From: Alphaproteobacteria bacterium
Lineage (GTDB): Bacteria; Pseudomonadota; Alphaproteobacteria; MPNO01; VGEU01
Assembly: GCA_016869145.1 (NCBI GenBank)
Contig: VGEU01000001.1
Location: 49,234 to 113,233 of the forward strand
DNA length: 64,000 nt
Reading direction: 5' to 3'
The translations under genes were made by a program, and so were the position numbers. This document shows, in pieces, positions 23,760 through 50,075 of this stretch; the stretch's first letter is position 1; the number at the start of each line of letters is the position of its first letter. A model generated the notes under the pieces. The model worked only from the letters and a program-made list of their open reading frames with translations, was not told the DNA's origin and made no database searches.

Positions 23760-24496
23760 CCACCCAGACCGTCCTCGTCACCGGCGGCGCGAGCGGCATC
23801 GGCCTCGCAAGCGTCGGCCTCCTCAATGCCGCGGGCCACAACGTCGTCGCCTGCGACATCCAGGCCGACAAGCTCGCGCGCGACGTGCCGAAGGATCCGA
23901 AGATCGCGACCGTCGCCGGCGACGTGACGCGGAAGGCCGACTGCGACAAGGCGGTCGCCGTCGCGCTCGAGAAGTTCGGCCGCCTTGATGCGCTCCTCCA
24001 CTGGGCCGGCATCCACGATGGCGGCACGCTAGAGGACATGAGCGAGGCCGAGTGGGACCGCGTCATGGCGATCAACGTCAAGGCCGCGTTCCTGATCGCC
24101 CAGGCTGCCGCGCGCCCGATGGTACGCCAGGGCGCCGGTGCGATCGTGCTCACGAGCTCGACCTCGGTCCTGTTCGGCGGCGCCGGCGGCGAGGGCCAGG
24201 TCGGGCCGGCCTATGTCGCATCCAAGGCGGCCATCATCGGGCTCACCCGCTCGCTCGCCCGCGGCCTCGGGCCGAAAGGCGTGCGGGTCAATGCCGTCAG
24301 CCCCGGGATCACCGAGACGCCCATGATCGGCGTGTTCTCGGACAATTTGCGCCGCGAGGCGGTAAAGCGCTTCCCGCTCGGGCGTTTCGGCCGCGCCGAG
24401 GAGATCGCGGCCGTCGGCTGCTTCCTGATCTCGGACGGCGCGAGCTTCATGACCGGCGAGGTCGTCCACGTCAATGGCGGGTCCAATTTCGGCTGA
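23756..24496 (+). CDS. SDR family oxidoreductase
   Basis: 246 aa with TGGASGIG and YVASK motifs. It overlaps the ligase stop by 4 nt, indicating translational coupling. Confidence 0.85.
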   Translation: MTTQTVLVTGGASGIGLASVGLLNAAGHNVVACDIQADKLARDVPKDPKIATVAGDVTRKADCDKAVAVALEKFGRLDALLHWAGIHDGGTLEDMSEAEWDRVMAINVKAAFLIAQAAARPMVRQGAGAIVLTSSTSVLFGGAGGEGQVGPAYVASKAAIIGLTRSLARGLGPKGVRVNAVSPGITETPMIGVFSDNLRREAVKRFPLGRFGRAEEIAAVGCFLISDGASFMTGEVVHVNGGSNFG

Positions 24497-24594
24497 CGCC
24501 CGCCCTTGGCACGCTATAGTGCCGATAGCGCACAGCACACGCCGGGCCGGGCACACGCGGGGCCTGGCACACGCGACGAATGAGGGAGGCCAGA

Positions 24595-25299
24595 ATGCAC
24601 AAGTTCGAGATGCCCAAGGACTATGTCCAGCGCGTGATCGACCGCCAGGGTCGCGCCCACACGGTCGAGAGCTTCGACACCAAGCGCACCGCCCTCGTCG
24701 TCGTCGACATGCAGATCTATTTCATGCGCGAGGACCAGCTCGGTGCCAACCCGATAGCGCAGGAGATCGTGCCCAACGTCAACCGCCTCGCCGATGCGGT
24801 GCGGCGGTCGGGCGGCATCGTGATCTGGATCCAGAACCTCGCGCCCTATGAATCCCTCGAAAGCTGGGATGTGCTCCGCGAGCGCTTCACCGACGACAAG
24901 ATCGACCGCCGCTGGGCGGCGATGCAGCGCGATGCGGAGCCGTTCCAGCTATGGCCCGGCCTCGACGTGCGGCCCGAGGACAAGCGCGTCGTCAAGCGCC
25001 GCTTCAGCGCCTTCATCCAGGGCTCGTCCGACATCGAGAACGTGCTCCGCGACGCCAATATCAAGACCATCATCGTCACCGGCGTCGCGACCAATGTGTG
25101 CTGCGAGTCGACCGCGCGCGACGCGATGATGCTCAACTACCGCTCGATGATGGTCTCCGACGGCTGCGCCACGGCGACCGACGAGGAGCACCACGCCTCG
25201 CTCTCCAATTTCTACATCCAGTTCGGCGACGTGCAGACGACCGACGAGATCATCGCCCGCCTCGATGCCTCGGCGCGGCGCAACCAGGCGGCCGAGTAG
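24595..25299 (+). CDS. Isochorismatase-family cysteine hydrolase
   Basis: Start at MHKFEM. ALVVVDMQIYF (Asp) ... K ... VTGVATNVCCEST (the catalytic Cys region) matches the isochorismatase or N-carbamoylsarcosine amidase family. Confidence 0.8.
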   Translation: MHKFEMPKDYVQRVIDRQGRAHTVESFDTKRTALVVVDMQIYFMREDQLGANPIAQEIVPNVNRLADAVRRSGGIVIWIQNLAPYESLESWDVLRERFTDDKIDRRWAAMQRDAEPFQLWPGLDVRPEDKRVVKRRFSAFIQGSSDIENVLRDANIKTIIVTGVATNVCCESTARDAMMLNYRSMMVSDGCATATDEEHHASLSNFYIQFGDVQTTDEIIARLDASARRNQAAE

Positions 25300-25327
25300 G
25301 CTGGCCGCGACGACACGGAGAACGACG

Positions 25328-25720
25328 ATGGGCAAGCGCGCACTGAAGCCGTCCTCCGTTCGGGCGAAGGGGAGCTACAGCCCCGGCTGGGAGGTCTCGA
25401 ACGGCCGCCTCATCTTCGTCGCCGGCCAGATCCCGTGGGACGAAGAGGGCCGTGTCGTCGCCAAGGGCGACGTCGCGGGCCAGACCCGGCAGGTGTTCAA
25501 AAACATCGCCGCCGTCCTCGCCGAGGCCGGCGCGACGCTCGACGACGTGATCAAGATCACCGTCTTCGCCGCCGACATCCGGTTTCGCGACCAGATCAAC
25601 CAGGTTCGGACCGAGACCTTCAAGGCCCCCTACCCGGCGAGCACCCAGGTGGCGGTCGCGGCGCTGGTCGATTCCGAGTGGATGGTCGAGATCGAGGCGA
25701 TCGCGTTCGTGCCGAACTGA
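25328..25720 (+). CDS. RidA/YjgF family protein (reactive-intermediate deaminase)
   Basis: 130 aa from MGKRALKP. GQIPWDEEGRVVAKGDVAGQTRQVFKNI and the C-terminal VEIEAIAF are typical of RidA. Confidence 0.8.
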   Translation: MGKRALKPSSVRAKGSYSPGWEVSNGRLIFVAGQIPWDEEGRVVAKGDVAGQTRQVFKNIAAVLAEAGATLDDVIKITVFAADIRFRDQINQVRTETFKAPYPASTQVAVAALVDSEWMVEIEAIAFVPN

Positions 25721-28961: not shown

Positions 28962-29161
28962 GGTATCTCCCCGTGTTGCTGTTCTTTGCGTCCAACCGTG
29001 CGACAATATTCTGCGTAATCTTACGTGTCGAACCGAAGTGCCAAAGCGACTCACAAAGCCGCGATCGAATGAACATGCGATGGGGCGCGAATCGCCGTGC
29101 GATGAGGGCTGCGCAGACACGCGAAGGGGCGGCACGGATGGCCGCCCCCTTGTTTCGTGAT

Positions 29162-29183: not shown

Positions 29184-29768
29184 TCAGCGCAATCCGTCCT
29201 CGCCCTTGATCTCCTCTTTCTTGAGGCCGCCGACGCGCGGCAGCGGTCGGCCCGAATCCGTAACGACGACGGCGACCAGGATCTCGTTGGCGCGCGGCGC
29301 GTCGGGGAGCCCGACCTCCATGGCGTCGAAATGGCTGCGCACGAAGGCCGCGTCCTTGTGCCCGAGGGGAACGTCGATGCGCGAGCCGGGTCCGCCCATC
29401 TTCTTGGCCGACGGCACCAGCGCCGCCCCCTTCTCGACCGCCTTGCGGAGCGGTGCGCCGAGCTTCGGGTGGAGGATCGCTGCGGCGTGCTCCCACTCGC
29501 CGTTCTCGCCCACGATCGCGGCCTTGCCGTAGCCCTCGGCCCGGCTCGGCTGGATGCCGAGCGCTTCGACCGCCATGCCGCCGAGAATGGCGCCGAGCTC
29601 CTCGCCGATCCCGATCAGCTCGTCGAGGTTCTCGACATAGCGACCGGCACAGGGGTTCTCAATCACCGCGATCGCCGCCGCCTTGCGCGTCGGTGTCGCG
29701 AGCGCCTTGCCCATCTCGCGCCGGGTCTCGTCGACCACGGTCACGAGGCGTCGGATCACCGCGCTCAT
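29184..29768 (-). CDS. Amino acid synthesis family protein (PF06684/DUF1185), tandem copy 1
   Basis: 194 aa from MSAVIRRLVTVVDETRRE. It is about 40% identical to the upstream copy (IVGENGEWEHAA; VRSHFDAMEV; DAPRANEI). A 4-nt ATGA overlap with the upstream gene indicates coupling. Confidence 0.8.
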   Translation of the reverse strand: MSAVIRRLVTVVDETRREMGKALATPTRKAAAIAVIENPCAGRYVENLDELIGIGEELGAILGGMAVEALGIQPSRAEGYGKAAIVGENGEWEHAAAILHPKLGAPLRKAVEKGAALVPSAKKMGGPGSRIDVPLGHKDAAFVRSHFDAMEVGLPDAPRANEILVAVVVTDSGRPLPRVGGLKKEEIKGEDGLR

Positions 29769-30394
29769 TTCAAGCCGTCCTCGCCCTTGACGTCCTTGTC
29801 CTCGAGCCCGCCCGCGCGCGCGTAGATCCGCGGCCCCGTCGCCATCGACTGGATCCAGACGATCTCGTTGGCCCGCGGCGCATCCGCGATGCGGCATTCG
29901 ATGCAGTCGAAATGGCTCCGCACATAAGCGGCATTCACATGCGCGAGCGGCACGTCGACAACCGTGCCGGGTCCGCCGACCTTCTTGGTCGACGGCACGA
30001 TCGCCTTCGACGGCTTGATGATCTGGCGCATGCCATAACCGCCGGGATCGTGCCACAGCGCGGCATGCTCGAGCTCGCCGTTCTCGCCGACGATCGCCGA
30101 TTTGCCGTAGGCCTTGATGCGCTCCTTGCCGCCGAGTGCCGCGATCAGGCGTTCGGCCATCTGGATGCCGAGCGGCTTCAACGCCTCCATCAGCGGCAGC
30201 AGGTCCTTCACATGGCGCCCGGCATAGGGGTTCGCGGTCACCGCGGCGATATAGCCCTTGAGCTGCGGCGGATCGGCCGACGGACCGAATTCGTGCAGCA
30301 CCTCCTCGACATGGAGCACGAACTTGCGGACCTTGACGAGCCCGCCCCCTTCGGTCGCCGACGCATCGCGCGCGACCGCTTTCACCTCGTTCAT
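29765..30394 (-). CDS. Amino acid synthesis family protein (PF06684/DUF1185), tandem copy 2
   Basis: 209 aa, MNEVKAVARDASATEGGGLVKVRKFVLHVEEV..., paralog of the 29184-29768 gene. Confidence 0.8.
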   Translation of the reverse strand: MNEVKAVARDASATEGGGLVKVRKFVLHVEEVLHEFGPSADPPQLKGYIAAVTANPYAGRHVKDLLPLMEALKPLGIQMAERLIAALGGKERIKAYGKSAIVGENGELEHAALWHDPGGYGMRQIIKPSKAIVPSTKKVGGPGTVVDVPLAHVNAAYVRSHFDCIECRIADAPRANEIVWIQSMATGPRIYARAGGLEDKDVKGEDGLK

Positions 30395-31260
30395 CGCTCT
30401 CCTCCGTTGTCGAGGGCCGCGGGCACCGTGCCGACGACCCTGTACCGCCGTTTCAATACCAGCACCGCGCCCGTGACGAGTCCAGCCCGACGGAGCCGAT
30501 CGGCCTCTGCGGCGCCCTGCCCCAGCGCCTCTTCGATCGAACGCGCATCGAGCGCACCGACCGAGACCGTGACGAGGCGATCGCCGAGATCGCTGTCGAG
30601 CTCGATCGTGCTCGCCGGCGCGCGCGCGATCGCAGGATGGTCGATCGCGGTCGCGTTCGCGATCATCGTCGCCGCCGCATCGGCCGCGGCTGCGTCGTCC
30701 GCGAGAACCGTCACCGCGTCGGCGATGCCGAGCGAGAAGCTCCGCCCCGACCAGCCGCTCGTTGCGATGCCGCGGATCGGGAGCGCCGCCGTGAGCCGCG
30801 CCGTCGTGTCGATCGAGGGATTGTCGATATCGCCGACGACGCCGAGCCGGAGCTCTTCGCCGGGCGCGAGATATATCGCGATGTCGCCGCCATTGTTGAC
30901 ATAGGCCCGCGACAGCGTGCGGCCGCCGACAAGCGCGGCGATCATCTCATCGGCGACGGCGCCGGCGACGGCCGCCATCGGCGTCACGAGCCGGTCGCGA
31001 TAGGGCCAGCACGCCGCCACCATCCGCCGCGCGACCGGCCCTTCCGGCTGCCAGCGCGGCTCGGCGAGCGGCGTGCGCAAGGCAGGGAGCTCGGCGACGA
31101 GCGTCGGCAGGATGTCGGCGAAGCGCGCGACGGCCTGGCGGTAGGCGGCCGCGATCTCGTCCGGCGCGCCGAACGCCTCGATGACGAGATCGATCGGGCC
31201 GTGCTGGAGGTGGAGGCGGCGGCCGTCCGGCAGCAGCGCCGCGACCGGCCCGCCCGCCAT
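30391..31260 (-). CDS. Hypothetical protein, UPF0280-like (commonly found next to 6-hydroxynicotinate reductase-like genes)
   Basis: 289 aa, MAGGPVAALLPDGRRLHLQHGPIDLVIEAF.... The family assignment is from memory of typical neighbourhood annotations and has low certainty. Confidence 0.5.
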   Translation of the reverse strand: MAGGPVAALLPDGRRLHLQHGPIDLVIEAFGAPDEIAAAYRQAVARFADILPTLVAELPALRTPLAEPRWQPEGPVARRMVAACWPYRDRLVTPMAAVAGAVADEMIAALVGGRTLSRAYVNNGGDIAIYLAPGEELRLGVVGDIDNPSIDTTARLTAALPIRGIATSGWSGRSFSLGIADAVTVLADDAAAADAAATMIANATAIDHPAIARAPASTIELDSDLGDRLVTVSVGALDARSIEEALGQGAAEADRLRRAGLVTGAVLVLKRRYRVVGTVPAALDNGGER

Positions 31261-31279
31261 CTCGCACTCGGGCTCAGAT

Positions 31280-32767
31280 CTAGGCGAGCGCGGCGCTCCG
31301 GTCGAATGGCCACGGATTGTCGGGCCGCCAGGCCGACGGCTTGGCGCGCGGCATCTGCAGGACCTCCTCGATCCGCTTCATCCGGTCGGTGTAGCCGCCG
31401 AGCTCGACATAGTCCTGGTACGGCAATGTGAACTCGATCGGCGCGACGAGGGCCGGCGTCGGCACGTAGCCGAAGGCGCGATCGGGAAGACGCGTCACGT
31501 CGACCATCACGGTGATGCCGCCGCCCGGCCACACATAGACCGGCGCGCCGCCGACCGTCACGCGGGTGCGGAGATGCTTGATCGACCGTGTGAGCCGGAC
31601 CGGGTTCACCGTGACGCCCGCGCGGAGGCTGCCGCCGGCGCCGCCCATGAAGAGGACCGTGCATAGCGCCGGCTCGCAGTTCTCGCCGATGCGGTCGACG
31701 ACGAGCCGGATCGGATCGGGCATCGCCGCCGGCTTCGGTTTGAGCTGGTCATCGAGCACGAAGAAGGCCGAGTCCTCGCCGGTCGTCGAAACCATCAGGA
31801 GCCGGAGACCGGGCCACGCGGTCTTGGTGTCGATCCTCTCGACGATGGTGAGCGGGTCCTTGACGTCGGTGCCGCCCCAGCCGCTGCCGGGCTCGGCGAC
31901 CTGGAAATAGCGGCCGGGTGTCGATTTCCGCCCGCGCACACGGATGCCGGCATGCGGCATGTCGAGGAAGCGGCCGGCCTGGTGCTCGGTGAGGACGCCG
32001 GTGATATGGTCGTCGACCACGATCACCTCGTCGACATGACCGTGCCATTGCGGCGCGAAGATGCCGAGCGTCGCCGAGCCGCAGCCGACGCGCATCCGCG
32101 CCTCCTGCACGCCGTTGATGATCGGCGGCTTGCCGGCCTGGACGACGATCGTCGCGCCGTCGTCGATCGTCATCTCGACGGCTTCCTTGTTGCAGAGCGC
32201 GAGGAGCGCTGCGCAGGTCACCGTCCCCTCCTTCTTGCTGCCGCCGGTGAGATGGCGGACGCCGCCGAGCGCCAGCATCTGCGAGCCGTACTCGGCGGTC
32301 GTGACGTGACCGATCTGCTCGCCGTCGACGCGCACCGCGGCCGGCTCCGGGCCGATATAGCGGTCGGTGTCGATCTTGACCTTGACGCCGCAATAGCTGA
32401 ACACGCCCTCGCTGACGACGGTGACCATGTCGACGCCGTCATGCCGCGAGGCGACGATGAAGGGCGCCGGCTTGTAATCGGGATAGGTGGTCGTCGCGCC
32501 GATGCCGGTGACGAAGACCGGCGCATCGGGGCGCACGAGCGAGCCGTCCCAACGCTCCGCCGCCTCGAGGAAGGGCACGACCGCGCCCTTGTCGTCGACC
32601 GCGCGCTGGGTCACGACCAGCGGGTCCATGCGGACGAGCACGCCCGCGCTATTGCCGTAGCGGTCGCAGGCGCCGGTCTTCTCCGGCCTGATCCGGCACA
32701 GGACCGGGCAGGCATCGCAGGTGATGATGCCGTCCGCCTTGCCGCCGCCTTCGGTGATGTCGTTCAT
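31280..32767 (-). CDS. 6-hydroxynicotinate reductase-like iron-sulfur protein
   Basis: Start at MNDITEGGGKADGIITCDACPVLCRIRPEKTGACDRYGN (an N-terminal Cys cluster). 495 aa. A 4-nt overlap with the upstream Mo-subunit gene places it in the same operon. Confidence 0.7.
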   Translation of the reverse strand: MNDITEGGGKADGIITCDACPVLCRIRPEKTGACDRYGNSAGVLVRMDPLVVTQRAVDDKGAVVPFLEAAERWDGSLVRPDAPVFVTGIGATTTYPDYKPAPFIVASRHDGVDMVTVVSEGVFSYCGVKVKIDTDRYIGPEPAAVRVDGEQIGHVTTAEYGSQMLALGGVRHLTGGSKKEGTVTCAALLALCNKEAVEMTIDDGATIVVQAGKPPIINGVQEARMRVGCGSATLGIFAPQWHGHVDEVIVVDDHITGVLTEHQAGRFLDMPHAGIRVRGRKSTPGRYFQVAEPGSGWGGTDVKDPLTIVERIDTKTAWPGLRLLMVSTTGEDSAFFVLDDQLKPKPAAMPDPIRLVVDRIGENCEPALCTVLFMGGAGGSLRAGVTVNPVRLTRSIKHLRTRVTVGGAPVYVWPGGGITVMVDVTRLPDRAFGYVPTPALVAPIEFTLPYQDYVELGGYTDRMKRIEEVLQMPRAKPSAWRPDNPWPFDRSAALA

Positions 32768-35520
32768 GGCCGTTGTTCCTTCCGCGCCAGGATCGCCGCG
32801 CGCACGCGATCCGGTGTCGCCGGCGCCCGCCGGATGCGGACGCCGGTCGCCTGGTAAATGCCGCCGAAGATCGCGGGCGCGGTCGCGCACAGGACGTGCT
32901 CGCCGACACCCTTGGCGCCATAGGGCCCGGTCGGCTCCGGATCCTCGACGAGGATGGTCTCGATCTCCGGCACGTCGCCGAAGGTCGGGATGAGGTAGTC
33001 GTGCAGGTTCTCGGTGCGGCCGGGGATGTATTCCTCCATCAGCGCGAGACCGAGGCCCTGCGCGACGCCGCCGTGGATCTGGCCCTCGACCTGGGTCGGG
33101 TTGAGCGAGCGGCCGACGTCATGCGCGGCGACGATGCGGCGGACCTTGACGGTGCCGAGCTCGACGTCGACCTCGACCTCGGCGATCTGCGCCGCGAAGC
33201 CGTAGGTCGCGTATGGCACGCCCTGGCCCTTCTCGTCGAGCGGCTCGGTCGGCGGATCGAAATAGCCCTCCGCCATGATGACGTCCCCGTTGGGCCCGCC
33301 GGCCTCGAGCCGCCGGAGGTCGATCGTCTGCATCCGTCCGCGGTCCTCGACCACGATCGCGCCCGGCTCGAAGCGAAGCCACGCGTCCTGGCCGGCATTG
33401 GCGAGGCGGAGGATCTCGGCGCGGAGGTTCTCGCCCGCGCGCTTGGCCGCGCCGCCGGATACATAGGCCTGGCGCGAGGCCGAGGTCTTGCCCGAATCCG
33501 GCGTCAGGTCGGTATCGCCCCAGACCAGACGGAGACGGTCGACCGCGATGCCGAGCCCGTCGGCCGCGACCTGGCTCATCGTCGTGTTGGTACCCTGGCC
33601 GATGTCCTGCGCGCCCGAATAGAGCGTCACCGTGCCGTCGGCGGCGACCCCCATGCGCATGGTCGAGGGATTGGGCGCCGAGGTCGCGCCGCAGCCATAC
33701 CAGATCGCGCCCACGCCGACGCCGCGCCGGCGCACGCCGTCGCCCGTGCGGTTGAAGGCCTCCGCCTCGGCACGCGCCTTCCGCCAGTGCGGCCGGAGCG
33801 CCGCGAGGCACTCGGCGAGGCCCGCGCTCGCCTTCAGCACCTGGCCCGACGCGGTCGGCTGGCCGACCCGGATCGCGTTCTTCCAGCGGAACTCGAGCGG
33901 GTCCATGCCGATGCGCTCGGCCATCTCGTCCATCAGCGCTTCGTGCGTGATCGCGGCCTGCGGCACGCCGAAGCCGCGGAACGCCCCGGCCGGTGTCTCG
34001 TTGGTGAAGACCGCGCGCGTCTTCGCCCGCACCGCTGGCACGTGATAGGGACCCATCGCGTGGATCGGCACGCGGTCCTTCACGGTGAGGCCCCAGGATG
34101 TGTAGGCGCCGGTGTTGAAGTCCCCGAAGAACGTGAAGCCGCTGAGCGCGCCGTCCTTGGTGCAGCCGTATCGCGCGGTCATCCGCGCCGGATGGCGCTT
34201 GGTGGTGGAGGACATCGACTCGATCCGGTGGTAGACGCAGCGCACCGGCCGGTCGAGATGCCAGGCCGCGAGCGCGACGAGCGGCTGGACGGAGATGTCG
34301 AGCTTGCCGCCGAAGCCGCCGCCGCATGCGGTCGGAATGATACGGACCGCCTCGTTGGCGATGCCGAGCACCTGCGCGACCTCGTCGCGATCCATATACG
34401 GCGTCTGGGTCGTCACCGTGACCTCGACCCGGTCGCCGACGCGCCGCGCCCAGCCGGCCTCGGGCTCGATATAGGCGTGCTCGACGAACGCGGTCTCGAA
34501 CGTCCCCTCGACGACGACATCGGCGGCCGCGAGCGCGGCATCGGCATCGCCCCGCTCGACATAGCCGAAGGCGAGGATGTTGCCGGGCTTGTCGGTGTGG
34601 AGGCGGTGCGCACCCTCGGCGAGCGCGCTATCGACGCCGACGAGTGCGGTGCGCGGGGTGTAGTGGATCGGCACCTCGTCGTCGCGGATCGTCATCACGG
34701 TGTCGCGGTCGCCGACCAGCGCCGCGACCGCCTCGCCGCGGAAACGCACATCGCCGTCCGCCAGCACCGGCTGGTCCTTCACCTGCGGATAGACGCCGAA
34801 GCCGTTATTGCCCGGAACGTCGCGTGCGGTGAAGACGCGGACAAGACCGGGATATTTGCGGTGGAGCGCATCGCACGCGCCCACGGTGAAGGTCGCGCTG
34901 AAATGGGGCGAGCGCACGGCACGGAGCCAGAGCGCGTCCGCGGGCGCCTGATCGGCGCCGAAGATCTCGCGGCCGTCGAGCTTCTGGAGACCATCGACCT
35001 TGGGAAAGCGCGCACCGACCGCGCGGCCCGCATCGGGCGTGTTGTCGAGCGCCGCCGCCGGCACGCGGCCGGCGACATGGAGAACGGCGTCCACGATCTT
35101 GCGATAGCCGGTGCAGCGGCAGAGGACGCCGCCGAGCGCGTCCATCACCTCGTCCTCGCTCGGGCGCGCGGTGCGCTGGAACAGATCCGCCGCCGCCATC
35201 AGCATGCCCGGCGTGCAGATGCCGCACTGCGCGGCGTTGAAATGGTGGAAGGCCTGTTGCAGCGCGGTGAGTTTGCCGTCCTTCGCCAGGCCCTCGACCG
35301 TCTCGATGCGCCGGCCGGCGACCTGGCCGGCGGGAACCATGCACGCGCACACCTGCGCGCCGTCGAGGAAAACGGTGCAGGCGCCGCAGTCGCCGGCATC
35401 GCAGCCCACCTTGGTTCCTGTGAATCCGAGATCCTCGCGCAGCACATGGGCGAGGCGGCGGACCGGCGACACCTCGACCGAGGTTGCGCGGCCGTTGAGC
35501 GTGAAGGCGATGGTGGTCAT
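32764..35520 (-). CDS. Fused (2Fe-2S)-binding small subunit plus molybdopterin-binding large subunit of a xanthine dehydrogenase/nicotinate dehydrogenase-family hydroxylase
   Basis: 918 aa. The N-terminal part has both 2Fe-2S motifs (CDAGDCGACTV; CGICTPGM...CRCTGY). The remainder is CoxL-like with GGGFGGK, GFGVPQA and QIHGGVAQG motifs. Confidence 0.9.
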   Translation of the reverse strand: MTTIAFTLNGRATSVEVSPVRRLAHVLREDLGFTGTKVGCDAGDCGACTVFLDGAQVCACMVPAGQVAGRRIETVEGLAKDGKLTALQQAFHHFNAAQCGICTPGMLMAAADLFQRTARPSEDEVMDALGGVLCRCTGYRKIVDAVLHVAGRVPAAALDNTPDAGRAVGARFPKVDGLQKLDGREIFGADQAPADALWLRAVRSPHFSATFTVGACDALHRKYPGLVRVFTARDVPGNNGFGVYPQVKDQPVLADGDVRFRGEAVAALVGDRDTVMTIRDDEVPIHYTPRTALVGVDSALAEGAHRLHTDKPGNILAFGYVERGDADAALAAADVVVEGTFETAFVEHAYIEPEAGWARRVGDRVEVTVTTQTPYMDRDEVAQVLGIANEAVRIIPTACGGGFGGKLDISVQPLVALAAWHLDRPVRCVYHRIESMSSTTKRHPARMTARYGCTKDGALSGFTFFGDFNTGAYTSWGLTVKDRVPIHAMGPYHVPAVRAKTRAVFTNETPAGAFRGFGVPQAAITHEALMDEMAERIGMDPLEFRWKNAIRVGQPTASGQVLKASAGLAECLAALRPHWRKARAEAEAFNRTGDGVRRRGVGVGAIWYGCGATSAPNPSTMRMGVAADGTVTLYSGAQDIGQGTNTTMSQVAADGLGIAVDRLRLVWGDTDLTPDSGKTSASRQAYVSGGAAKRAGENLRAEILRLANAGQDAWLRFEPGAIVVEDRGRMQTIDLRRLEAGGPNGDVIMAEGYFDPPTEPLDEKGQGVPYATYGFAAQIAEVEVDVELGTVKVRRIVAAHDVGRSLNPTQVEGQIHGGVAQGLGLALMEEYIPGRTENLHDYLIPTFGDVPEIETILVEDPEPTGPYGAKGVGEHVLCATAPAIFGGIYQATGVRIRRAPATPDRVRAAILARKEQRP

Positions 35521-36359
35521 GTGGCGGTCCCCAGCTCGGCAAGCGCACGGCGCACCAGCGTGAGCGCCGCGTCAAGGCGATAGTCCCTGGTGCCGCGCAC
35601 GTCGTCGATCGGCGCCAGAGGTTCGAGATGGCGTGCGGTCGCGACATCGGCAAGCGCGCGCCCGATCGGGCGGCCCGCGAGCGCGGCCTCAAGGAGTGGG
35701 AGCCGACGTGCGACCGGCGCGCAGGAGCCGACGGCGATGCGCGCGGCGCCGACCGTACCGTCCGCCGCGCGCTCGATCACGGCGGCCACCATCACGATCG
35801 AGATGACGAGATATCGTCGCGCGCCGAGCTTGAGGAACGTGCTCGTCGCGACCCCGCTCGGCTTCGGGATGCGGATCGCGGTGACGAGCTCGCCCGGCAT
35901 GCGGACCGTGCGCCGGTTGCCGATGATGAACTCGGTCAAGGGGACCCGGCGCGTCCCCCGCGCCGAGGCGAGCTCGACGGCGGCATCGAGCGCGATCAGG
36001 GCCGGCACGCCGTCGGCGGCCGGCGAGGCGTTGCAGATATTGCCCGCGATGGTGCCGGCGTTCTGGACTTGGATGCCCCCCACCTCGCGCGCGGCGAGCT
36101 TCAGGGTGCGAAACCAAGCCGGCAGGTCGGCCGCGATCAAGCCGCTCCAGGTGACCAGCGCGCCGATCCGGATGTGATCGCCGGCATCCTCGATCCGCCG
36201 GAGCTCGGCGAGCGCGGAGAGGTCGAGCACGTCCTCGTCGACCACGCGTCCGACCCGCGCCGGGTAGAAATCCGTGCCGCCCGCGACGATCGCCAACGGC
36301 CGTTCGCCGAGCGCGCGGACGGCCTCCTCGACAGCGGTGGGGCGGAGATAGAAACCCAT
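35517..36359 (-). CDS. FAD-binding medium subunit of a xanthine dehydrogenase-family hydroxylase (CoxM-like)
   Basis: Start at MGFYLRPTAVEEAVRALGERPLAIVAGGTDFYP. AGGTDF and GNICNASPAADG are typical FAD-binding motifs. It overlaps the next gene by 4 nt. Confidence 0.85.
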   Translation of the reverse strand: MGFYLRPTAVEEAVRALGERPLAIVAGGTDFYPARVGRVVDEDVLDLSALAELRRIEDAGDHIRIGALVTWSGLIAADLPAWFRTLKLAAREVGGIQVQNAGTIAGNICNASPAADGVPALIALDAAVELASARGTRRVPLTEFIIGNRRTVRMPGELVTAIRIPKPSGVATSTFLKLGARRYLVISIVMVAAVIERAADGTVGAARIAVGSCAPVARRLPLLEAALAGRPIGRALADVATARHLEPLAPIDDVRGTRDYRLDAALTLVRRALAELGTAT

Positions 36360-36369: not shown

Positions 36370-36535
36370 CTCCCGGCTTGAAAAATTTGTTTGTATACAT
36401 ACAATAGTTCCGCCCGGCTCGCCGGCTGTCAAGCGTTCGCGCCGGCAAACAAGGCAGGTTAGCTGAGCCGCCTTCGATTGGCTTTGGCAACCCTGCGCGG
36501 TATATAGCATTCCGGCCGCGGAGAACGGTCCGTTC
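36370..36535. promoter_or_regulatory. Divergent promoter region between the Mo-hydroxylase operon and korAB, with a local AT-rich patch and palindromes (TGTATACA; GAACGGTCCGTTC)
   Basis: Sequence cttgaaaaatttgtttgtatacatacaatagttcc (about 36378-36412) and gagaacggtccgttctaa (about 36521-36538), read directly. It is unusually AT-rich for this genome. Confidence 0.4.
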
Positions 36536-36621: not shown

Positions 36622-38490
36622 ATGGCCACCAAGCTCGCGTCAGAACCCTCGGAGCGCCCGGCGCGACGGACGGTCGAGTCCGTCGTCATCCGATTCGCCG
36701 GCGATTCGGGTGACGGCATGCAGATCACCGGGACCCAGTTCACCCAATCGACCGCCCTGATGGGCAACGACCTCGCGACCTTCCCCGACTTCCCGGCCGA
36801 GATCCGGGCGCCGGTCGGCACGACCTATGGCGTGTCCGCGTTCCAGATCAACTTCGCGTCCTACGACATCATGACGCCGGGCGATGCGCCCGACGTCCTG
36901 GTCGCGATGAACCCCGCCGCGCTCAAGGTCCACCTCAAGGACGTGCGCAAGGGCGGCACGCTGATCCTGAATACGGGCGCCTTCAACGACCGCAATTTCC
37001 AGAAGGCCGGCTACAAGGCGAACCCGCTCGAGGATGGCTCGCTCGGCGGCTTCCGCGTGCTCCCGATCGATGTCTCCAAGCTGACGCTGAATGCGGTCGA
37101 GAAGACCGGGCTGTCGCAGAAGGATGCGCTCCGCTGCAAGAACTTCTGGGCGCTCGGCCTGATGTGCTGGATGTATGGACGCGAGCTGCAGCCGACGGTC
37201 GAGTGGATCAACAAGCGGTTCGAGAAACGGCCCGAGCTCGCCGCCGCCAACCTCGCCGCGCTCAAGGCCGGCCACGCCTATGGCGAGACGGCGGAGCTCT
37301 CCGGCTTCGAATCCGTCGAGGTGCCGAAGGCGCGCTCGTCGCCCGGCATCTACCGCGCGGTGACGGGCACCGAGGCGGTCGCGTGGGGTCTCGTCTGCGG
37401 CGCGCACAAGGCGGGCCTCAAGCTCTTCTTCGGCTCCTACCCGATCACGCCCGCCTCCTCCCTCCTCCACACGCTCGCCAATCTCAAGCAATACGGCGTC
37501 ACGACCTTCCAGGCCGAGGACGAGATCGCGGCCGTCTGCTCGTCGATCGGCGCATCCTATGCCGGCCAGATCGGTGTCACCTCGTCGTCGGGCCCGGGCG
37601 TCGCGCTCAAGACCGAAGCGATCGGCCTCGCCTTCGCGACCGAATTGCCGCTGATCATCGTCAACAGCCAGCGCGGCGGACCGTCGACCGGGCTGCCGAC
37701 CAAGACCGAGCAGTCCGACCTCTACCAGGCCGTGTTCGGCCGGAACGCCGATACGCCCGTTCCCGTCATCGCCTCGTCGACGCCCGGCGACTGCTTCTAT
37801 GTCGGCGTCGAGGCGGTGCGGCTCGCGACCAAGTACATGACGCCGGTGATCCTCCTCACCGACGGCTATCTCGCCAACGCGGCCGAGCCGTGGCTGATCC
37901 CCAATGTCGACGACATCGAACCGTTCCCCGTCAGCTTCGACATCGATCCCGAGGGGTTCCATCCGTTCCGGCGCGACGAGACGACGCTCGGGCGCAACTG
38001 GGCGACGCCCGGCATGCCGGGGCTGATGCACCGCATCGGCGGCATCGAGAAGGACTACAACTCGGGCCACATCTCCTACGAGTCGAACAACCACCACCAC
38101 ATGACCAAGGTCCGCGCGGCCAAGGTCAACGGCATCGCCAACGACATCCCGCTGCAGAAAGTCGCGAGCGGCACCGAGCGCGGCAAGCTCGCGGTCGTCG
38201 GCTGGGGCTCGACCTTCGGGGCGATCAACCAGGCCGTGGCGCGGAGCCGCGCGCGCGGGCTCGACGTCTCGCACATCCAGATCCGCCACATCTGGCCGCT
38301 GCCGCGCAATCTCGGCGCGCTCCTCGAGGGCTACGACAAGATCATCGTTCCCGAGATGAACAACGGCCAGCTCGTTACGCTCTTGCGGGCGCAGTATCTG
38401 GTGCCGGCCGAGGGCATCAACCAGATTTCCGGACTGCCATTCAAGGTCGCCGATCTCGAGGCCGAGATCAGCGCTCGCCTGGAGAAGTGA
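36622..38490 (+). CDS. korA: 2-oxoglutarate:ferredoxin (2-oxoacid:acceptor) oxidoreductase alpha subunit
   Basis: 622 aa, with GDSGDGMQITGTQF, the TPP-domain motif GSYPITPASS and the pyruvate/2-oxoacid ferredoxin oxidoreductase domain order. Confidence 0.9.
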   Translation: MATKLASEPSERPARRTVESVVIRFAGDSGDGMQITGTQFTQSTALMGNDLATFPDFPAEIRAPVGTTYGVSAFQINFASYDIMTPGDAPDVLVAMNPAALKVHLKDVRKGGTLILNTGAFNDRNFQKAGYKANPLEDGSLGGFRVLPIDVSKLTLNAVEKTGLSQKDALRCKNFWALGLMCWMYGRELQPTVEWINKRFEKRPELAAANLAALKAGHAYGETAELSGFESVEVPKARSSPGIYRAVTGTEAVAWGLVCGAHKAGLKLFFGSYPITPASSLLHTLANLKQYGVTTFQAEDEIAAVCSSIGASYAGQIGVTSSSGPGVALKTEAIGLAFATELPLIIVNSQRGGPSTGLPTKTEQSDLYQAVFGRNADTPVPVIASSTPGDCFYVGVEAVRLATKYMTPVILLTDGYLANAAEPWLIPNVDDIEPFPVSFDIDPEGFHPFRRDETTLGRNWATPGMPGLMHRIGGIEKDYNSGHISYESNNHHHMTKVRAAKVNGIANDIPLQKVASGTERGKLAVVGWGSTFGAINQAVARSRARGLDVSHIQIRHIWPLPRNLGALLEGYDKIIVPEMNNGQLVTLLRAQYLVPAEGINQISGLPFKVADLEAEISARLEK

Positions 38491-38491
38491 G

Positions 38492-39520
38492 ATGAACGTT
38501 CAGACCCCCGTCGCGAAGCTCACGCCCAACGACTACGCCTCCGATCAGGACGTCCGCTGGTGCCCCGGCTGCGGCGACTACGCGATCCTGAAATCCGTAC
38601 ACAAGGCGCTCGCCGACCTGCAGGCCCCGCTCGACACGACGGTGTTCATCTCGGGCATTGGCTGCGCCGCGCGCTTCCCCTATTACATGGCGACCTACGG
38701 CTTCCACACGATCCATGGCCGCGCGCCGGCGATCGCGACCGGCACCAAGCTCGCCAATCCCGATCTCGATGTCTGGGTCGTCATGGGTGACGGCGATGCG
38801 CTCTCGATCGGCGGCAATCACACGCTGCACGCGATCCGGCGCAACGTCGATCTCAACCTCCTGATGTTCAACAACGCGATCTACGGGCTGACCAAGGGCC
38901 AGTACTCGCCGACTTCGAAGGTCGGCACGCGCTCGCCCTCGACGCCTCAGGGCTCGGTCGACCAGCCGGTCAACGCGATCCTGTTCGCGCTCGGCGCCGG
39001 TGCGCGCTTCGTCGCCCGTTCGGTCGACACCAACCAGAAGCACTTGCCGGAGATGCTGAAGCGCGCGCACGCGCACAAGGGCGCCTCGTTCGTCGAGATC
39101 CTGCAGAACTGCATCGTCTACAACGACGGGGCCTTCTCCGACGTGACCGAGCGCGACGTCGCGCCCGACCGTCAGGTCGTGGTCGAGCACGGCAAGAAGC
39201 TCGTGTTCGGCAAGGACGGGAAGAAGGGTGTGCGCATGAAGCCGGGCGCGCTCGAGCTCGAGGTCGTGACGATCGGCGAGAACGGCGTAACCGAGGCCGA
39301 CATCCTGGTCCACGACGAGAAGAACCGCGCCATGGCGCTCCTCCTCGCAGGCATGGACGGCGGGGCGCTCCCGGTCGCGATGGGGGTCATCTACTGCAAT
39401 CCGGTCGAGAGCTATGACGTCGCGGTCCACAAGCAGATGCGCGAGGTGATCGAGAAGACACCGGCGATCGAATTCAACAAACTCCTCCGCCGCGGCAATA
39501 CCTGGACGGTGAACACCTGA
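38492..39520 (+). CDS. korB: 2-oxoglutarate:ferredoxin oxidoreductase beta subunit (TPP-binding)
   Basis: 342 aa, with WCPGCGDYAIL and the GDGD...N TPP-binding signature (VMGDGDALSIGGNH). Its start overlaps the korA stop. Confidence 0.9.
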   Translation: MNVQTPVAKLTPNDYASDQDVRWCPGCGDYAILKSVHKALADLQAPLDTTVFISGIGCAARFPYYMATYGFHTIHGRAPAIATGTKLANPDLDVWVVMGDGDALSIGGNHTLHAIRRNVDLNLLMFNNAIYGLTKGQYSPTSKVGTRSPSTPQGSVDQPVNAILFALGAGARFVARSVDTNQKHLPEMLKRAHAHKGASFVEILQNCIVYNDGAFSDVTERDVAPDRQVVVEHGKKLVFGKDGKKGVRMKPGALELEVVTIGENGVTEADILVHDEKNRAMALLLAGMDGGALPVAMGVIYCNPVESYDVAVHKQMREVIEKTPAIEFNKLLRRGNTWTVNT

Positions 39521-41063: not shown

Positions 41064-42491
41064 TCAGATCGAGAATCCGCCGAGCTTGGTCTCGAGATAT
41101 TCCGCGATGCCGTCGTGGCCGCCCTCGCGGCCGAGCCCGCTCTCCTTCGCGCCGCCGAACGGCGCCGCCGCAGCAGTCGGGTTGATGTCGTTGATTCCGA
41201 CGATCCCGAAACGAAGCCCCTCGAACATCCGGAACGCGCGGCCGATATCGCGGGTGTAGATATAGGACGCGAGCCCGTAATGGGTGTCGTTCGCCATGGC
41301 GAGCGCATCCTCCTCGGTTTCGAAGGTGATTACCGGGGCGACCGGGCCGAAGGTCTCCTCGCGGTAGATCAGCATGTCCGGACGCACCTCGGCGAGGACG
41401 GTCGGTGCATAGAACGTGCCCTTGTCGAGGCCGTTCGAGATCAGCCGATGGCCGCCGCAGAGGAGCTTCGCGCCCTTGCCGACCGCGTCCTGAACCTGGC
41501 GATCCACCTTTGCGATCGCATCGGCATCGACTAGCGGGCCGATCGCGACGTTCTCCTCCATGCCGTCGCCGGCGCGCATCTTCTCGACCCGCGCGGTCAA
41601 CTCGCGCGTGAACGGCTCGGCGATCGAGCGGTGGACGAAGATCCGGTTCGGGCTGATGCAGGCTTGGCCCGTGTTGAGGAACTTCACGAGCGAGGCGCCG
41701 CGCGCGGCGTGGAGCGGATCGGCGTCGTCGAAGACGAGGAAGGGCGCATGGCCGCCGAGCTCGAGGCTGACGCGCTTCATCTGCGCCGCGGCGCGCGCGG
41801 CGATCATCTTGCCGATCTCGGTCGAGCCGGTGAAGGCGAGCTTGCGGATGCGCGGATCGGTGAGAAAGACATCGCCGACCGGCGCCGGGTCGAGCGCTGT
41901 GACGAGGTTCACGACGCCCTTGGGAATGCCGGCATCTGCGAATACGCGAAACATCTCGACCGCGCAGAGTGGCGTCGCCTCGGCCGGCTTCAGGACGATC
42001 GTGCAGCCGGCGGCGAGCGCCGGCCCGATCTTCCGCGTCAGCATCGAGATGGGATAGTTCCACGGCGTGATCGCGCCGACCGGGCCGACCGGCTGCTTCG
42101 CGACGATGAAACGCTGATCGCTGCGCGGCGCGGGAATGGTCTCGCCATAGACGCGCTTGGCCTCCTCCGCGTACCAGAGGAGGAAATCGGCGCCGTACTG
42201 CACCTCGTTGCGCGCGGCCCGGATCGGCTTGCCCTGCTCGGCGGTCATGGTCTTCGCGAGCTCTTCCTTGCGCTCGACCATCAGGGTCCAGGCCTTGTAG
42301 AGGAATTCCGAGCGCTGATAGGCGGTGAGCCGCGACCAGGTCGCGAAGGCGCGTGTCGCGGCGGCGACCGCATCGAGCGTGTCCTCGCGCCCACCGGCCG
42401 GCACCGTGCCGATGACCGCGCCGTTGGCGGGGTTGGTCACCTCGAACACGCCACCGTTCCGCGCCTTCCGCCACTCGCCGTCGATGTACAT
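41064..42491 (-). CDS. NAD(P)-dependent aldehyde dehydrogenase (succinate-semialdehyde dehydrogenase-like)
   Basis: 475 aa, with ELGGHAP (the catalytic Glu region), FLNTGQACISPNR (the catalytic Cys) and GxxxxG. Confidence 0.9.
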   Translation of the reverse strand: MYIDGEWRKARNGGVFEVTNPANGAVIGTVPAGGREDTLDAVAAATRAFATWSRLTAYQRSEFLYKAWTLMVERKEELAKTMTAEQGKPIRAARNEVQYGADFLLWYAEEAKRVYGETIPAPRSDQRFIVAKQPVGPVGAITPWNYPISMLTRKIGPALAAGCTIVLKPAEATPLCAVEMFRVFADAGIPKGVVNLVTALDPAPVGDVFLTDPRIRKLAFTGSTEIGKMIAARAAAQMKRVSLELGGHAPFLVFDDADPLHAARGASLVKFLNTGQACISPNRIFVHRSIAEPFTRELTARVEKMRAGDGMEENVAIGPLVDADAIAKVDRQVQDAVGKGAKLLCGGHRLISNGLDKGTFYAPTVLAEVRPDMLIYREETFGPVAPVITFETEEDALAMANDTHYGLASYIYTRDIGRAFRMFEGLRFGIVGINDINPTAAAAPFGGAKESGLGREGGHDGIAEYLETKLGGFSI

Positions 42492-42598
42492 CGCCCTCTC
42501 CCCGGTTCGATCCGATCTCCATACACCGGCCGGCGCGGTTTGACACCTGTCGGCGCCGCTGCCTACCGTTGCCCGTATCGCCAGAGGGAGACCGCGCG

Positions 42599-43003
42599 AT
42601 GGAACGCCAGCACATCAATCCGCCCGCGCTCTTCAAGCATCCGAGCTATACCCGCGTGGTCACCGTCCAGGGACCGAGCAAGCTCGTCTTCATCGCCGGC
42701 CAGACACCGTCCGACGAGACCTACCGTCCAATCGGCAAGGGCGATCTCAAGCGTCAGTACGAGCGCGTCATGGAGGCACTCGATCTCCAACTCCGGGCCG
42801 CCGGCGCGGGCTGGGACGACGTCGTCTTCCGCCGCATCTTCGTCCTCGACATGGACGCCTTCATCAAGGTCCAGACCGATCCGTCGACGACCTATCCGTG
42901 GCACCCCGACCGGCCGCCGCCCTCGACGCTGGTCGGCGTGACGAGGCTGTCGCACCCGGACTTCATGATCGAGATCGACCTGATGGCCGTCGTCGCAGCC
43001 TGA
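42599..43003 (+). CDS. RidA/YjgF-family protein (second copy)
   Basis: From MERQHINPPALFKHPSYTRVVTV... The alternative start at 42569 cannot be excluded. Confidence 0.7.
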   Translation: MERQHINPPALFKHPSYTRVVTVQGPSKLVFIAGQTPSDETYRPIGKGDLKRQYERVMEALDLQLRAAGAGWDDVVFRRIFVLDMDAFIKVQTDPSTTYPWHPDRPPPSTLVGVTRLSHPDFMIEIDLMAVVAA

Positions 43004-43006: not shown

Positions 43007-43465
43007 CTATTCCGCGATCCGGGCGAGGAGGCGGACGAGCGTCTTCCGCTCCGCCGGGTCGAGGGGGCCGAGCGTCCGTTCGCTGATCGCCCGCGCGCCC
43101 TCGATCGCCGCCGTCATGAGCGCGTGGCCCGCCTCGGTCAGCGACAGGATGAGCCGCCGCCGGTCGTCGGGGTCGGGCCGGCGCGCGATGAGGCCGCGGG
43201 CGGCGAGACGCTGGATCACGCCCTGCATGGTGGCGGCGTCCATCGCGGTGAGCCGGCCCAGCTGGTTCTGCGAGGTTTCACCGACGTCGCGGAGCTTGAC
43301 CAGCGCCGCGAACTGGAGCGGCGTCAGCTGCGCGGCGCCGATGTTCTCGAGGAAGATCGCCGCGTGGCGCTGATGGGCGCGGCGGAGCAGATGCCCCACC
43401 TGCGCCTCGAGCCGGTATCCGGCCTCGGCCACGGCCTTGCCGGTCGGTCGTCCCGCCCCGTCCAT
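43007..43465 (-). CDS. MarR family transcriptional regulator
   Basis: 152 aa with a winged-helix region LTPLQFAALVKL...SQNQLGRLTAMDAATMQGVIQRLAARGLIAR. Confidence 0.85.
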   Translation of the reverse strand: MDGAGRPTGKAVAEAGYRLEAQVGHLLRRAHQRHAAIFLENIGAAQLTPLQFAALVKLRDVGETSQNQLGRLTAMDAATMQGVIQRLAARGLIARRPDPDDRRRLILSLTEAGHALMTAAIEGARAISERTLGPLDPAERKTLVRLLARIAE

Positions 43466-43523
43466 CGCGCCGCCAATCGTTCGTACACGAACGATGTCGG
43501 AGCCGGACCCGGCCTGTCAAGGA

Positions 43524-45961: not shown

Positions 45962-46001
45962 CGCGTGCTCCTTTGGTGCGCGTGGTGCGCGGCGGATCCG
46001 G

Positions 46002-50052: not shown

Positions 50053-50075
50053 GTCATCCGGTCGAGGAGTCCGTC

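Follow-up and report, generated by a model that had tools for sequence, protein, structure and literature searches.

Organization of the operon

We analysed a 64-kb window of contig VGEU01000001.1 (the whole stretch of DNA considered here), which comes from a metagenome-assembled genome labelled ‘Alphaproteobacteria bacterium’ and has a GC content of 0.65-0.71. On its minus strand, at positions 29184-36359, lies an operon of six open reading frames (ORFs) that resembles the nicotinate cluster of Eubacterium barkeri. In transcriptional order, the genes encode the flavin adenine dinucleotide (FAD)-binding subunit of a molybdenum (Mo) hydroxylase, a fused 2Fe-2S and molybdopterin subunit, a homologue of 6-hydroxynicotinate reductase (Hnr), a UPF0280 protein, and two PF06684 proteins that we call paralogues A and B (Table 1). 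Every gene starts with ATG, and third-position GC is high throughout. The encoded proteins are identical to the GenBank entries of the host genome, where they carry names such as 6-hydroxynicotinate reductase, UPF0280 family protein and amino acid synthesis family protein.

Coordinates and domain searches agree with the six-gene operon and the domain content proposed in the initial annotation of this DNA. That annotation also had consecutive genes overlapping by 4 nucleotides, which is true of four of the five junctions: ATGA overlaps join FAD to Mo, Mo to Hnr, UPF0280 to PF06684-A, and PF06684-A to PF06684-B, whereas a 19-nucleotide spacer separates Hnr from UPF0280. The GC-rich hairpin beyond PF06684-B probably marks the end of the operon.

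We compared the window with 88 related proteobacterial or metagenome loci and with Firmicute and deltaproteobacterial loci, using flanks of up to 10 kb. All neighbourhood counts below ignore kinship among the loci, that is, they carry no correction for phylogeny. Loci are given as L numbers and proteins as P numbers where they need to be told apart.

Comparison with the E. barkeri nicotinate cluster

The E. barkeri VPI 5359 locus (L003) was found by a search with the enamidase sequence of PDB 2VUN, and the two clusters were compared in both directions. Both directions gave 38% identity between the FAD subunit and NdhF, and 47%, 41% and 39% identity between the fused protein and NdhS, NdhL and NdhM, respectively. 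The fused protein also matches chains A, B and D of PDB 3HRD with 286, 223 and 138 bits, so that the nicotinate dehydrogenase (NDH) chains together reach 647 bits, compared to 412 bits for the best single PDB chain. Similarity of the reductase to E. barkeri Hnr had been set beforehand as a test, and we find 40-41% identity over 457 residues (E = 1e-92 to 1e-107). The same check on the putative enamidase gave 46% identity over its full length. UPF0280 is 34% identical to the E. barkeri ORF directly 3′ of hnr, and PF06684-B is 54% identical to the single E. barkeri copy directly 3′ of ena. Because the E. barkeri cluster itself contains UPF0280 and PF06684, these two families are not proteobacterial additions. 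The same five families are clustered in about 15 other Firmicutes, in one Deltaproteobacterium and in the 88 proteobacterial or metagenome loci.

The proposal that this is an E. barkeri-type nicotinate module in a high-GC proteobacterium is thus upheld, as the counterparts of Ndh, Hnr, Ena, UPF0280 and PF06684 are all found within the E. barkeri cluster. The likeness extends to the position of UPF0280 directly 3′ of hnr. There are also differences. The E. barkeri Hnr has an N-terminal 2x[4Fe-4S] domain and the window Hnr does not; the FeS and Mo parts are three proteins in E. barkeri and a single fused protein here; and one PF06684 copy is present in E. barkeri, as in Firmicutes, compared to two paralogues in the window. 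The ORFs downstream of ena that belong to the fermentative lower pathway (Hgd, Hmd, Mgm, Mii, Dmd and Dml) have no counterpart in the window in a tblastn search with all L003 ORFs (E <= 1e-6). Conversely, genes for a 2-oxoacid:ferredoxin oxidoreductase (OFOR) and an FprA-like reductase adjoin the operon in the window.

Based on these similarities, we propose that the operon encodes the upper steps of the ‘hybrid’ route of nicotinate breakdown described for E. barkeri and Azorhizobium, a reading to which we assign a probability of roughly 0.8.

Table 1. Features of the window, with the operon first, followed by the enamidase operon and putative lower pathway, regulatory elements, and the divergent redox genes
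Feature	Position	Strand	Evidence
FAD-binding subunit of Mo hydroxylase (NdhF-like), 280 aa	35517..36359	-	PF00941 (FAD_binding_5) and PF03450 (CO_deh_flav_C); 38% identity to NdhF; ATGA overlap with next gene
Fused 2Fe-2S and molybdopterin subunit (NdhS+NdhL+NdhM equivalent), 918 aa	32764..35520	-	Fer2, Fer2_2, Ald_Xan_dh_C, MoCoBD_1/2
Hnr homologue, short form without ferredoxin domain, 495 aa	31280..32767	-	40% identity to E. barkeri Hnr; GenBank MBM3485080.1 ‘6-hydroxynicotinate reductase’
UPF0280 / ApbE-superfamily protein, proposed Hnr accessory or maturation factor, 289 aa	30391..31260	-	NF003322
PF06684 protein, paralogue A, 209 aa	29765..30394	-	PF06684, E = 4.6e-67
PF06684 protein, paralogue B, 194 aa	29184..29768	-	PF06684, E = 3.4e-71; PDB 2QTP, E = 1.4e-85
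GC-rich hairpin GGGGCGGC-N7-GCCGCCCC	29126..29148		36 nt past PF06684-B stop codon
Enamidase (predicted THON ring opening), 399 aa	25768..26967	+	PDB 2VUN, E = 6.5e-112, residues 3-386 aligned to 2-385, HxH kept; 46% identity to E. barkeri Ena
RidA-family protein directly upstream of enamidase	25265..25720	+	PF01042, E = 3.5e-33; TIGR00004 and RutC-like matches below cutoffs
Isochorismatase-family (RutB-like) hydrolase	24580..25299	+	PF00857; RutB, E = 9e-22, below cutoff
Short-chain dehydrogenase (SDR), enamidase operon	23756..24496	+	adh_short_C2
Acyl-CoA ligase, candidate glutarate-CoA ligase	22137..23759	+	AMP-binding and AMP-binding_C
Succinate/glutarate-semialdehyde-type aldehyde dehydrogenase	41064..42614	-	PF00171; TIGR01780 (succinate-semialdehyde dehydrogenase), 582 bits, cutoff 646
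Acyl-CoA dehydrogenase, candidate glutaryl-CoA dehydrogenase	44747..46129	-	Acyl-CoA_dh N, M, C; only sub-threshold NCBIfam matches
MarR-family regulator, NicR-like by position	43007..43516	-	PF12802 and PF01047
AT-rich palindrome TTGTTTGTATACATACAA, candidate MarR/NicR operator	36387..36404		In 262-bp divergent promoter region; unique in window, 0.13 expected by chance
OFOR (2-oxoacid:ferredoxin or acceptor oxidoreductase) alpha subunit	36622..38490	+ (divergent)	POR, POR_N, PFOR_II; TIGR03710, 626.8 bits, cutoff 482.75
OFOR beta (thiamine pyrophosphate) subunit	38492..39520	+	PF02775; TIGR02177, 258.9 bits, just under cutoff 261.9
FprA / adrenodoxin-reductase-type NADPH:ferredoxin reductase, 453 aa	39638..40999	+	PDB 1LQT (FprA), E = 1.6e-91; 1CJC (adrenodoxin reductase), E = 2e-91

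Proposed pathway and ring opening

Judging from the characterized relatives of these enzymes, the FAD/2Fe-2S/Mo hydroxylase would convert nicotinate to 6-hydroxynicotinate, the Hnr homologue would reduce the C4=C5 bond to give 1,4,5,6-tetrahydro-6-oxonicotinate (THON), and the enamidase would open the THON lactam to 2-formylglutarate and ammonia. The enamidase gene lies 2.2 kb from the end of the operon, in a ligase/SDR/isochorismatase/RidA operon of its own. The initial annotation had already recognized an enamidase-like amidohydrolase in this setting, and the match to 2VUN supports that assignment. The adjoining RidA and RutB-like proteins may assist ring opening, and the SDR-isochorismatase-Ena order is also found in L030. 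Decarboxylation of 2-formylglutarate would then give glutarate semialdehyde, which the aldehyde dehydrogenase may oxidize to glutarate and the CoA ligase may activate to glutaryl-CoA, a possible substrate for the acyl-CoA dehydrogenase. From this gene content and the published Azorhizobium pathway, the lower pathway appears to be the aerobic glutarate route and not the fermentative one. The Azorhizobium pathway that Kitts et al. reportedly described in 1992 agrees with the proposed lower route.

Many related loci have a different pair of genes in place of enamidase. This pair, HyuA and HyuB of the ATP-dependent hydantoinase/oxoprolinase type, replaces enamidase in 18 of the 38 loci whose downstream sequence extends for 5 kb or more, and in 22 of 88 overall. 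It is usually encoded directly 3′ of hnr-UPF0280 (e.g., 18638-22431 in L035, 18008-21843 in L036, and many of L037-L116), which suggests that HyuAB provides an alternative, ATP-driven opening of the THON lactam.

The MarR gene downstream of the divergent redox genes and the palindrome upstream of the operon may form a regulatory pair. MarR homologues that are 46-67% identical occur in 28 of the 88 related loci, and the Pleomorphomonas copy is annotated as NicR.

Between the operon and the enamidase gene, on the minus strand at 27065-28758, are two paralogous genes for AidB-lactonase-like proteins of the metallo-β-lactamase (MBL) fold. We exclude this pair from the module because it has no counterpart in the 88 related loci.

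A short form of Hnr

The initial annotation described the reductase as an Hnr-like Fe-S protein with an N-terminal cysteine cluster. The homology and a four-cysteine motif (C17-x2-C20-x3-C24-x9-C34) are indeed present, but the architecture is not that of the E. barkeri enzyme. At the N-terminus of Firmicute and deltaproteobacterial Hnr proteins is a domain of ~55 residues that carries two CxxCxxCxxxC motifs and matches Pfam Fer4 (E about 1e-13). This dicluster domain, the 2x[4Fe-4S] domain of E. barkeri Hnr, was detected in five of five Firmicute and deltaproteobacterial sequences compared to none of eight proteobacterial ones. It is missing from the window Hnr and from all 120 of its closest homologues, which begin at the four-cysteine motif. 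The E. barkeri enzyme is said, in work by Alhapel et al. from 2006, to contain one [2Fe-2S] and two [4Fe-4S] clusters besides a covalent flavin. If so, the short Hnr would retain just the flavin and the [2Fe-2S] site.

An alignment of Firmicute and proteobacterial Hnr sequences has 108 invariant columns. Within the loop R-x-G-C229-G-S231-A-T233, Cys229 is the sole residue conserved in every Hnr, including fusion proteins that are described below. Position 233 is threonine in 130, serine in one and alanine in five of 136 sequences, and one clade of fusion proteins has A-C-G-A-A-I in place of G-C-G-S-A-T.

The Hnr family comprises at least 8000 clusters at 90% identity; among 1.84 billion representatives clustered at 50% identity, 297 belong to it (E <= 1e-30). 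The window Hnr belongs to no Pfam or NCBIfam family and has only a sub-threshold Pfam match to GCV_T_C; a diverse Hnr profile has no match in the PDB at E <= 10. A similarity between the Hnr core and DUF39 was suspected but not detected in profile searches. An AlphaFold2 model of Hnr built from 37 close homologues is poor, with a predicted local distance difference test (pLDDT) score of 63.7. Hnr therefore stands as a sizeable enzyme family without a Pfam model, solved structure or recognizable fold. One protein, P0278, looked like an Hnr-UPF0280 fusion and was rejected as a frameshifted translation.

Electron supply to Hnr

How a ferredoxin-dependent reductase obtains its electrons in an aerobe was raised in the initial annotation, which missed that a divergent unit encoding OFOR and an FprA-like protein lies next door and bears on the question. 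The FprA-like protein matches both 1LQT and 1CJC over its full length (residues 18-447). OFOR alpha occupies the same position in L029, L030, L031, L038, L040, L046 and L059; in L045 and L050 it runs co-linearly with the operon. Orthologues of the FprA-like protein are encoded beside hnr in L031, L045, L046 and L050. In L045 and L050, the genes form one co-linear array, MarR-OFORa-OFORb-FprA-FAD-Mo-Hnr-UPF0280-HyuA-HyuB, with gaps of 25-120 nucleotides.

Other lineages have other reductant modules. A ferredoxin-NADP reductase of the Fpr type (~260 residues) is encoded near the hnr operon in L032, L033 and L114, including a Sulfitobacter plasmid and a Comamonadaceae plasmid, and an fpr gene lies ~7 kb from hnr within the same cluster on a Neorhizobium plasmid (L035). 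A further arrangement, present in at least 14 protein clusters whose contexts look anaerobic, has an NAD(P)H module resembling GltD/NfnB (Fer4_20 with Pyr_redox_2) that either precedes the Hnr core as a fusion or is inserted within it. These GltD-Hnr fusions (P0260, P0395-P0407 and P0249; loci L117-L122) lie within Mo-hydroxylase/enamidase clusters.

The occurrence of three different reductant solutions on one enzyme argues that these modules feed Hnr. We hypothesize that the short Hnr in the window is probably fed by the divergent FprA-type NADPH reductase, by the two-subunit OFOR, or by both, with electrons passing to Hnr either directly or via a ferredoxin encoded elsewhere.

A multi-subunit OFOR is also found beside the nicotinate cluster in anaerobe-type contigs (565-4969 in L117, and the contig of P0398). 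In L117, a Fer4 protein and a stand-alone GltD-like protein accompany this OFOR.

UPF0280 as a putative accessory factor for Hnr

UPF0280 genes keep close company with hnr. In 58 of 66 proteobacterial loci, UPF0280 is less than 200 nucleotides downstream of hnr on the same strand, and in four of the eight exceptions (L034, L070, L079 and L089) a MarR gene lies between the two. Among the 16 Firmicute and deltaproteobacterial loci with both genes, UPF0280 is directly 3′ of hnr in 15, and in L011 the genes are about 6 kb apart. It is likely that UPF0280 is an Hnr-linked accessory or maturation factor.

The window protein scores 374.7 bits against NF003322 (cutoff 290) and has a precomputed match to PF27030 (AbpE_bact). 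Its AlphaFold2 model is well defined (pLDDT 91.9). A Foldseek search with this model returned 2O34 (DVU1097) first, followed by 39 consecutive ApbE/Ftp/FmnB chains with E = 3e-5 to 8e-3 and TM scores of 0.3-0.5. In the family profile, the N-N-G-G-D-I and A-D-A-x-A-T motifs of UPF0280 align with Vibrio cholerae ApbE; we take the GGD and D-x-x-x-T motifs to be the Mg2+/pyrophosphate site of ApbE. UPF0280 thus resembles the ApbE/Ftp/FmnB FAD:protein flavin mononucleotide transferases in the fold of its model and in the aligned GGD and A-D-x-x-A-T motifs. It differs in being cytoplasmic and shorter, with sequence homology only over the C-terminal half of the profile. There is no equivalent of the catalytic histidine in the aligned UPF0280 stretch, and the presumed target lacks the canonical acceptor motif. 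ApbE enzymes modify a [S/T]-G-A-[S/T] motif, as in NqrC and RnfG, and the only Hnr loop that resembles it is the one around Cys229, Ser231 and Thr233.

The other point of comparison is COG2122 (DVU1097 / MA1715), to which the closest solved structure belongs. In both cases an ApbE-like protein is associated with a two-electron reductive enzyme that is linked to ferredoxin and has essential cysteines. The partner enzyme is DUF39 there and Hnr here, and the window protein belongs to NF003322 and not to NF003321, NF003323 or NF003324.

Fusion proteins provide a view of the Hnr loop. The three fusion loci that keep G-C-G-S-A all have UPF0280 directly downstream. In the A-C-G-A-A-I clade, UPF0280 is absent from three of four loci and retained in L122. 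We considered the rule that UPF0280 is lost whenever the Ser/Thr loop is lost, and rejected it because of L122. A role of Thr233 as strict flavin acceptor was likewise rejected, given alanine at this position in five of 136 sequences and isoleucine or cysteine in fusion proteins.

Our best single guess, and a weak one, is that UPF0280 would install or process the Hnr flavin at the G-C-G-S-A-T loop. That UPF0280 attaches flavin is in itself doubtful. The fullest version of the proposal has two components: UPF0280 would be a dedicated cytoplasmic enzyme that modifies the G-C-G-S-A-[T/S] loop of Hnr, for example by ApbE-like covalent flavin attachment, and aerobes would carry out oxygen-sensitive chemistry with a pared-down Hnr coupled to a dedicated module driven by NADPH or a 2-oxoacid. 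We consider it rather unlikely that both components are correct. If the proposal is true, it would provide the first biochemical function for UPF0280/COG2122, and would hint at what that family does for DUF39 in homocysteine synthesis.

PF06684 paralogues

Both PF06684 proteins are full-length members of the family, with 225 (A) and 239 bits (B) against a gathering score of 27 and coverage of profile positions 1-175 of 175. They are 44% identical to each other, and both have all family-invariant motifs. PDB 2QTP and 3BYQ are matched as well. Within PF06684/DUF1185, which includes BB2672 (3BYQ), SPO0826 (2QTP), TgnF and HcdD, paralogue B is close to SPO0826. TgnF likewise comes from a pyridine-carboxylate pathway, that of trigonelline.

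The distribution of PF06684 follows the type of ring-opening enzyme. Among short-Hnr loci with at least 5 kb downstream, PF06684 is present in 10 of 10 enamidase-type loci compared to 7 of 18 HyuAB-type loci (Fisher p = 0.0016, kinship ignored). The stronger statement that PF06684 always accompanies enamidase is true in short-Hnr and Firmicute loci and false in the GltD-fusion clade, and we rejected it. PF06684 tracks enamidase in short-Hnr loci and is dispensable in other lineages. With low confidence, we suggest that paralogues A and B could form a dispensable helper, probably a hetero-oligomer, that acts around the ring-opening or aldehyde stage. In trigonelline catabolism, the PF06684 homologue TgnF has been reported to stimulate succinate-semialdehyde dehydrogenase (PMC7913881).

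The ‘amino acid synthesis’ label of PF06684 came from neighbouring LIV-type ABC transporters (PMC2954203). In the clusters compared here, those neighbours are probably the transporter of the nicotinate cluster, as in L032, L033 and L035. Because LIV-type transporters belong to the catabolic cluster in nicotinate loci, the name is probably misleading.

Alternative explanations

Identity to the characterized enzymes is just 38-47%, so another pyridine carboxylate is possible as the substrate. The module could act on a different N-heterocyclic carboxylate, such as a hydroxylated pyridine dicarboxylate, isonicotinate or a picolinate derivative, with the window forming a broader pyridine-carboxylate island. 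Three additional Mo subunits of the xanthine dehydrogenase (XDH) family in the window would fit this explanation, as would two UbiD decarboxylases, a quinolinate phosphoribosyltransferase-like gene and TctC/MFS transporters at 47-55 kb, and no named Mo hydroxylase reaches its NCBIfam equivalog cutoff. We nevertheless regard it as improbable: the three upper-pathway enzymes and both accessory families are found together in exactly the combination that the E. barkeri nicotinate cluster has, orthologous clusters are found in bacteria shown to use nicotinate via THON, and the extra decarboxylases fit feeding dicarboxylates into the nicotinate route, not replacing it. The upper nicotinate pathway thus remains our preferred assignment for the operon. 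As for its reductant, the OFOR/FprA-like unit could be an unrelated housekeeping or catabolic neighbour, while Hnr draws on a general ferredoxin or flavodoxin pool. Our proposal is weakened by two results that such a pool would explain: OFOR, FprA or Fpr is found beside hnr in only 10 of the 40 loci whose upstream sequence covers 6 kb or more, and motif scans of the window and 11 related loci revealed no credible ferredoxin ORF to connect the parts. For these reasons, we describe the link as recurrent and not universal, and we infer the actual electron path. A general pool seems unlikely, however, when three NAD(P)H or 2-oxoacid modules, non-homologous or of different build, recur beside or inside Hnr in separate lineages, including the one-strand arrays of L045 and L050 and true gene fusions.

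Flavin attachment by UPF0280 faces several contrary observations. The window protein scores 15 bits against Pfam ApbE (PF02424), below the threshold of 25.6, and aligns to profile positions 133-243 of 266, while the E. barkeri orthologue reaches 29.5 bits over the C-terminal half only. The Hnr loop has G-C-G-S-A-[T] instead of [S/T]GA[S/T], with the threonine replaced by alanine in the five sequences noted above, and L122 still has a UPF0280 gene even though its fusion protein belongs to the A-C-G-A-A-I clade. Because the Hnr model is poor, there is no structural support for a flavin site. Finally, the homology between COG2122 and ApbE falls short of the flavin-binding region (PMC5764234). Instead of transferring flavin, UPF0280 could handle sulfur or persulfide, or mature another cofactor, on Cys229 of Hnr, as COG2122 relatives might do. 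DVU1097 (2O34), the closest solved structure, is a COG2122 protein, and this family is required together with DUF39 and a NIL/ferredoxin protein for homocysteine synthesis; the member tested, DvMF_0044 of Desulfovibrio vulgaris Miyazaki F, is needed genetically alongside a reductive enzyme linked to ferredoxin, and a role involving persulfide was suggested (PMC5764234). The confinement of ApbE sequence homology to the C-terminal half and the universality of Cys229, alone among the loop residues and in fusions too, are consistent with sulfur chemistry. Such a role has a modest chance of being correct, similar to that of flavin attachment. Against it, we detect no sequence link between Hnr and DUF39, UPF0280 retains the GGD and D-x-x-x-T motifs, and loss of the Ser/Thr hydroxyls coincides with loss of UPF0280 in three of four fusion-clade loci, which fits a Ser/Thr-directed modification better. 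The PF06684 pair, in turn, could serve the reductase step, as Hnr subunits or a product tautomerase, and not the ring-opening or aldehyde stage. In Proteobacteria, the PF06684 genes are translationally coupled behind hnr-UPF0280 and keep that place in loci whose Mo enzyme or enamidase gene lies elsewhere (L031 and L038), and the fusion clade without PF06684 also tends to be without UPF0280. A helper around ring opening is itself challenged by the absence of PF06684 from 11 of 18 HyuAB-type loci and from four of four A-C-G-A-A-I fusion-clade loci despite an enamidase-like gene. On the other hand, PF06684 follows ena and not hnr in E. barkeri and its relatives, the enamidase-type and HyuAB-type loci that differ so clearly in PF06684 content all have Hnr and UPF0280, and TgnF, the only homologue with a biochemical report, is described as stimulating a semialdehyde dehydrogenase (PMC7913881). 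A function at the reductase step therefore strikes us as unlikely, and we retain the ring-opening or aldehyde stage as our tentative assignment.

Relation to described clusters

The initial annotation regarded the proteobacterial clusters as uncharacterized, and this does not hold. The THON route is established in E. barkeri and in the aerobe Azorhizobium caulinodans (PMC9304392). A conserved proteobacterial cluster was drawn in 2012 for A. caulinodans, Bradyrhizobium japonicum, Rhodopseudomonas palustris and strain SG-6C, which grows on nicotinate, in a paper that attributes the comparison to Alhapel et al. 2006, mentions an Hnr homologue of 42% identity, and reports growth on nicotinate and 6-hydroxynicotinate (PMC3511419). 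Because it was described in 2006 and 2012, and because the proteins are already named in GenBank, the cluster is not new. The window is of the same kind as the cluster of Azorhizobium ORS571, Bradyrhizobium, Rhodopseudomonas and SG-6C (PMC3511419, Fig. 4), with aerobic hosts and, as proposed for the window, a glutarate lower route. In a comparison by published description, not gene by gene, the window operon differs in having no ABC transporter inside, in that enamidase is encoded in another operon, along with a ligase, an SDR, an isochorismatase-family protein and RidA, and in the adjoining OFOR/FprA-like unit.

NicAB and NicR annotations occur in L035 and L036. The nic cluster of Pseudomonas putida (NicAB, NicC and NicX) encodes the aerobic maleamate pathway, in which the first step, from nicotinate to 6-hydroxynicotinate, is also Mo-dependent and the regulator NicR is of the MarR type. 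Here, the 6-hydroxynicotinate ring would be reduced and hydrolysed, not decarboxylated or oxygenated, and the hydroxylase is of the XDH type with an FAD subunit, whereas NicAB is cytochrome-c-linked.

The cluster itself adds little, being another copy of a pathway whose biochemistry has been known since 1989-2006. What the comparison adds is the short proteobacterial Hnr, the lineage-specific reductant modules, the patterns of UPF0280 and PF06684, and a lower pathway that appears to be aerobic. It offers a clean comparative case of how a ferredoxin-dependent ring reductase is powered in aerobes, makes the function of UPF0280/COG2122 approachable since the partner Hnr can be assayed, and bears on the role of the PF06684 ‘amino acid synthesis’ proteins, whose name seems to stem from a misread transporter context. 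Through this comparison, the electron-supply question and both accessory roles become specific experiments.

Other genes in the window

On the plus strand at 47154-55204 are two UbiD-family decarboxylases (47154-48686 and 53660-55204), a major facilitator superfamily (MFS) transporter, two TctC-type binding proteins and a quinolinate-phosphoribosyltransferase-like gene. This region looks like a funnel of pyridine dicarboxylates into the nicotinate route.

The three further XDH-family Mo large subunits are encoded at 13516-20310 (minus strand), 1-2238 and 59375-62194. One of them adjoins two Hydantoinase_B-only proteins of ~725 residues and a glutathione S-transferase. Similar lone Mo subunits of 781 residues adjoin PF06684 genes in L029 and L030, and one lies near PF06684 in L031.

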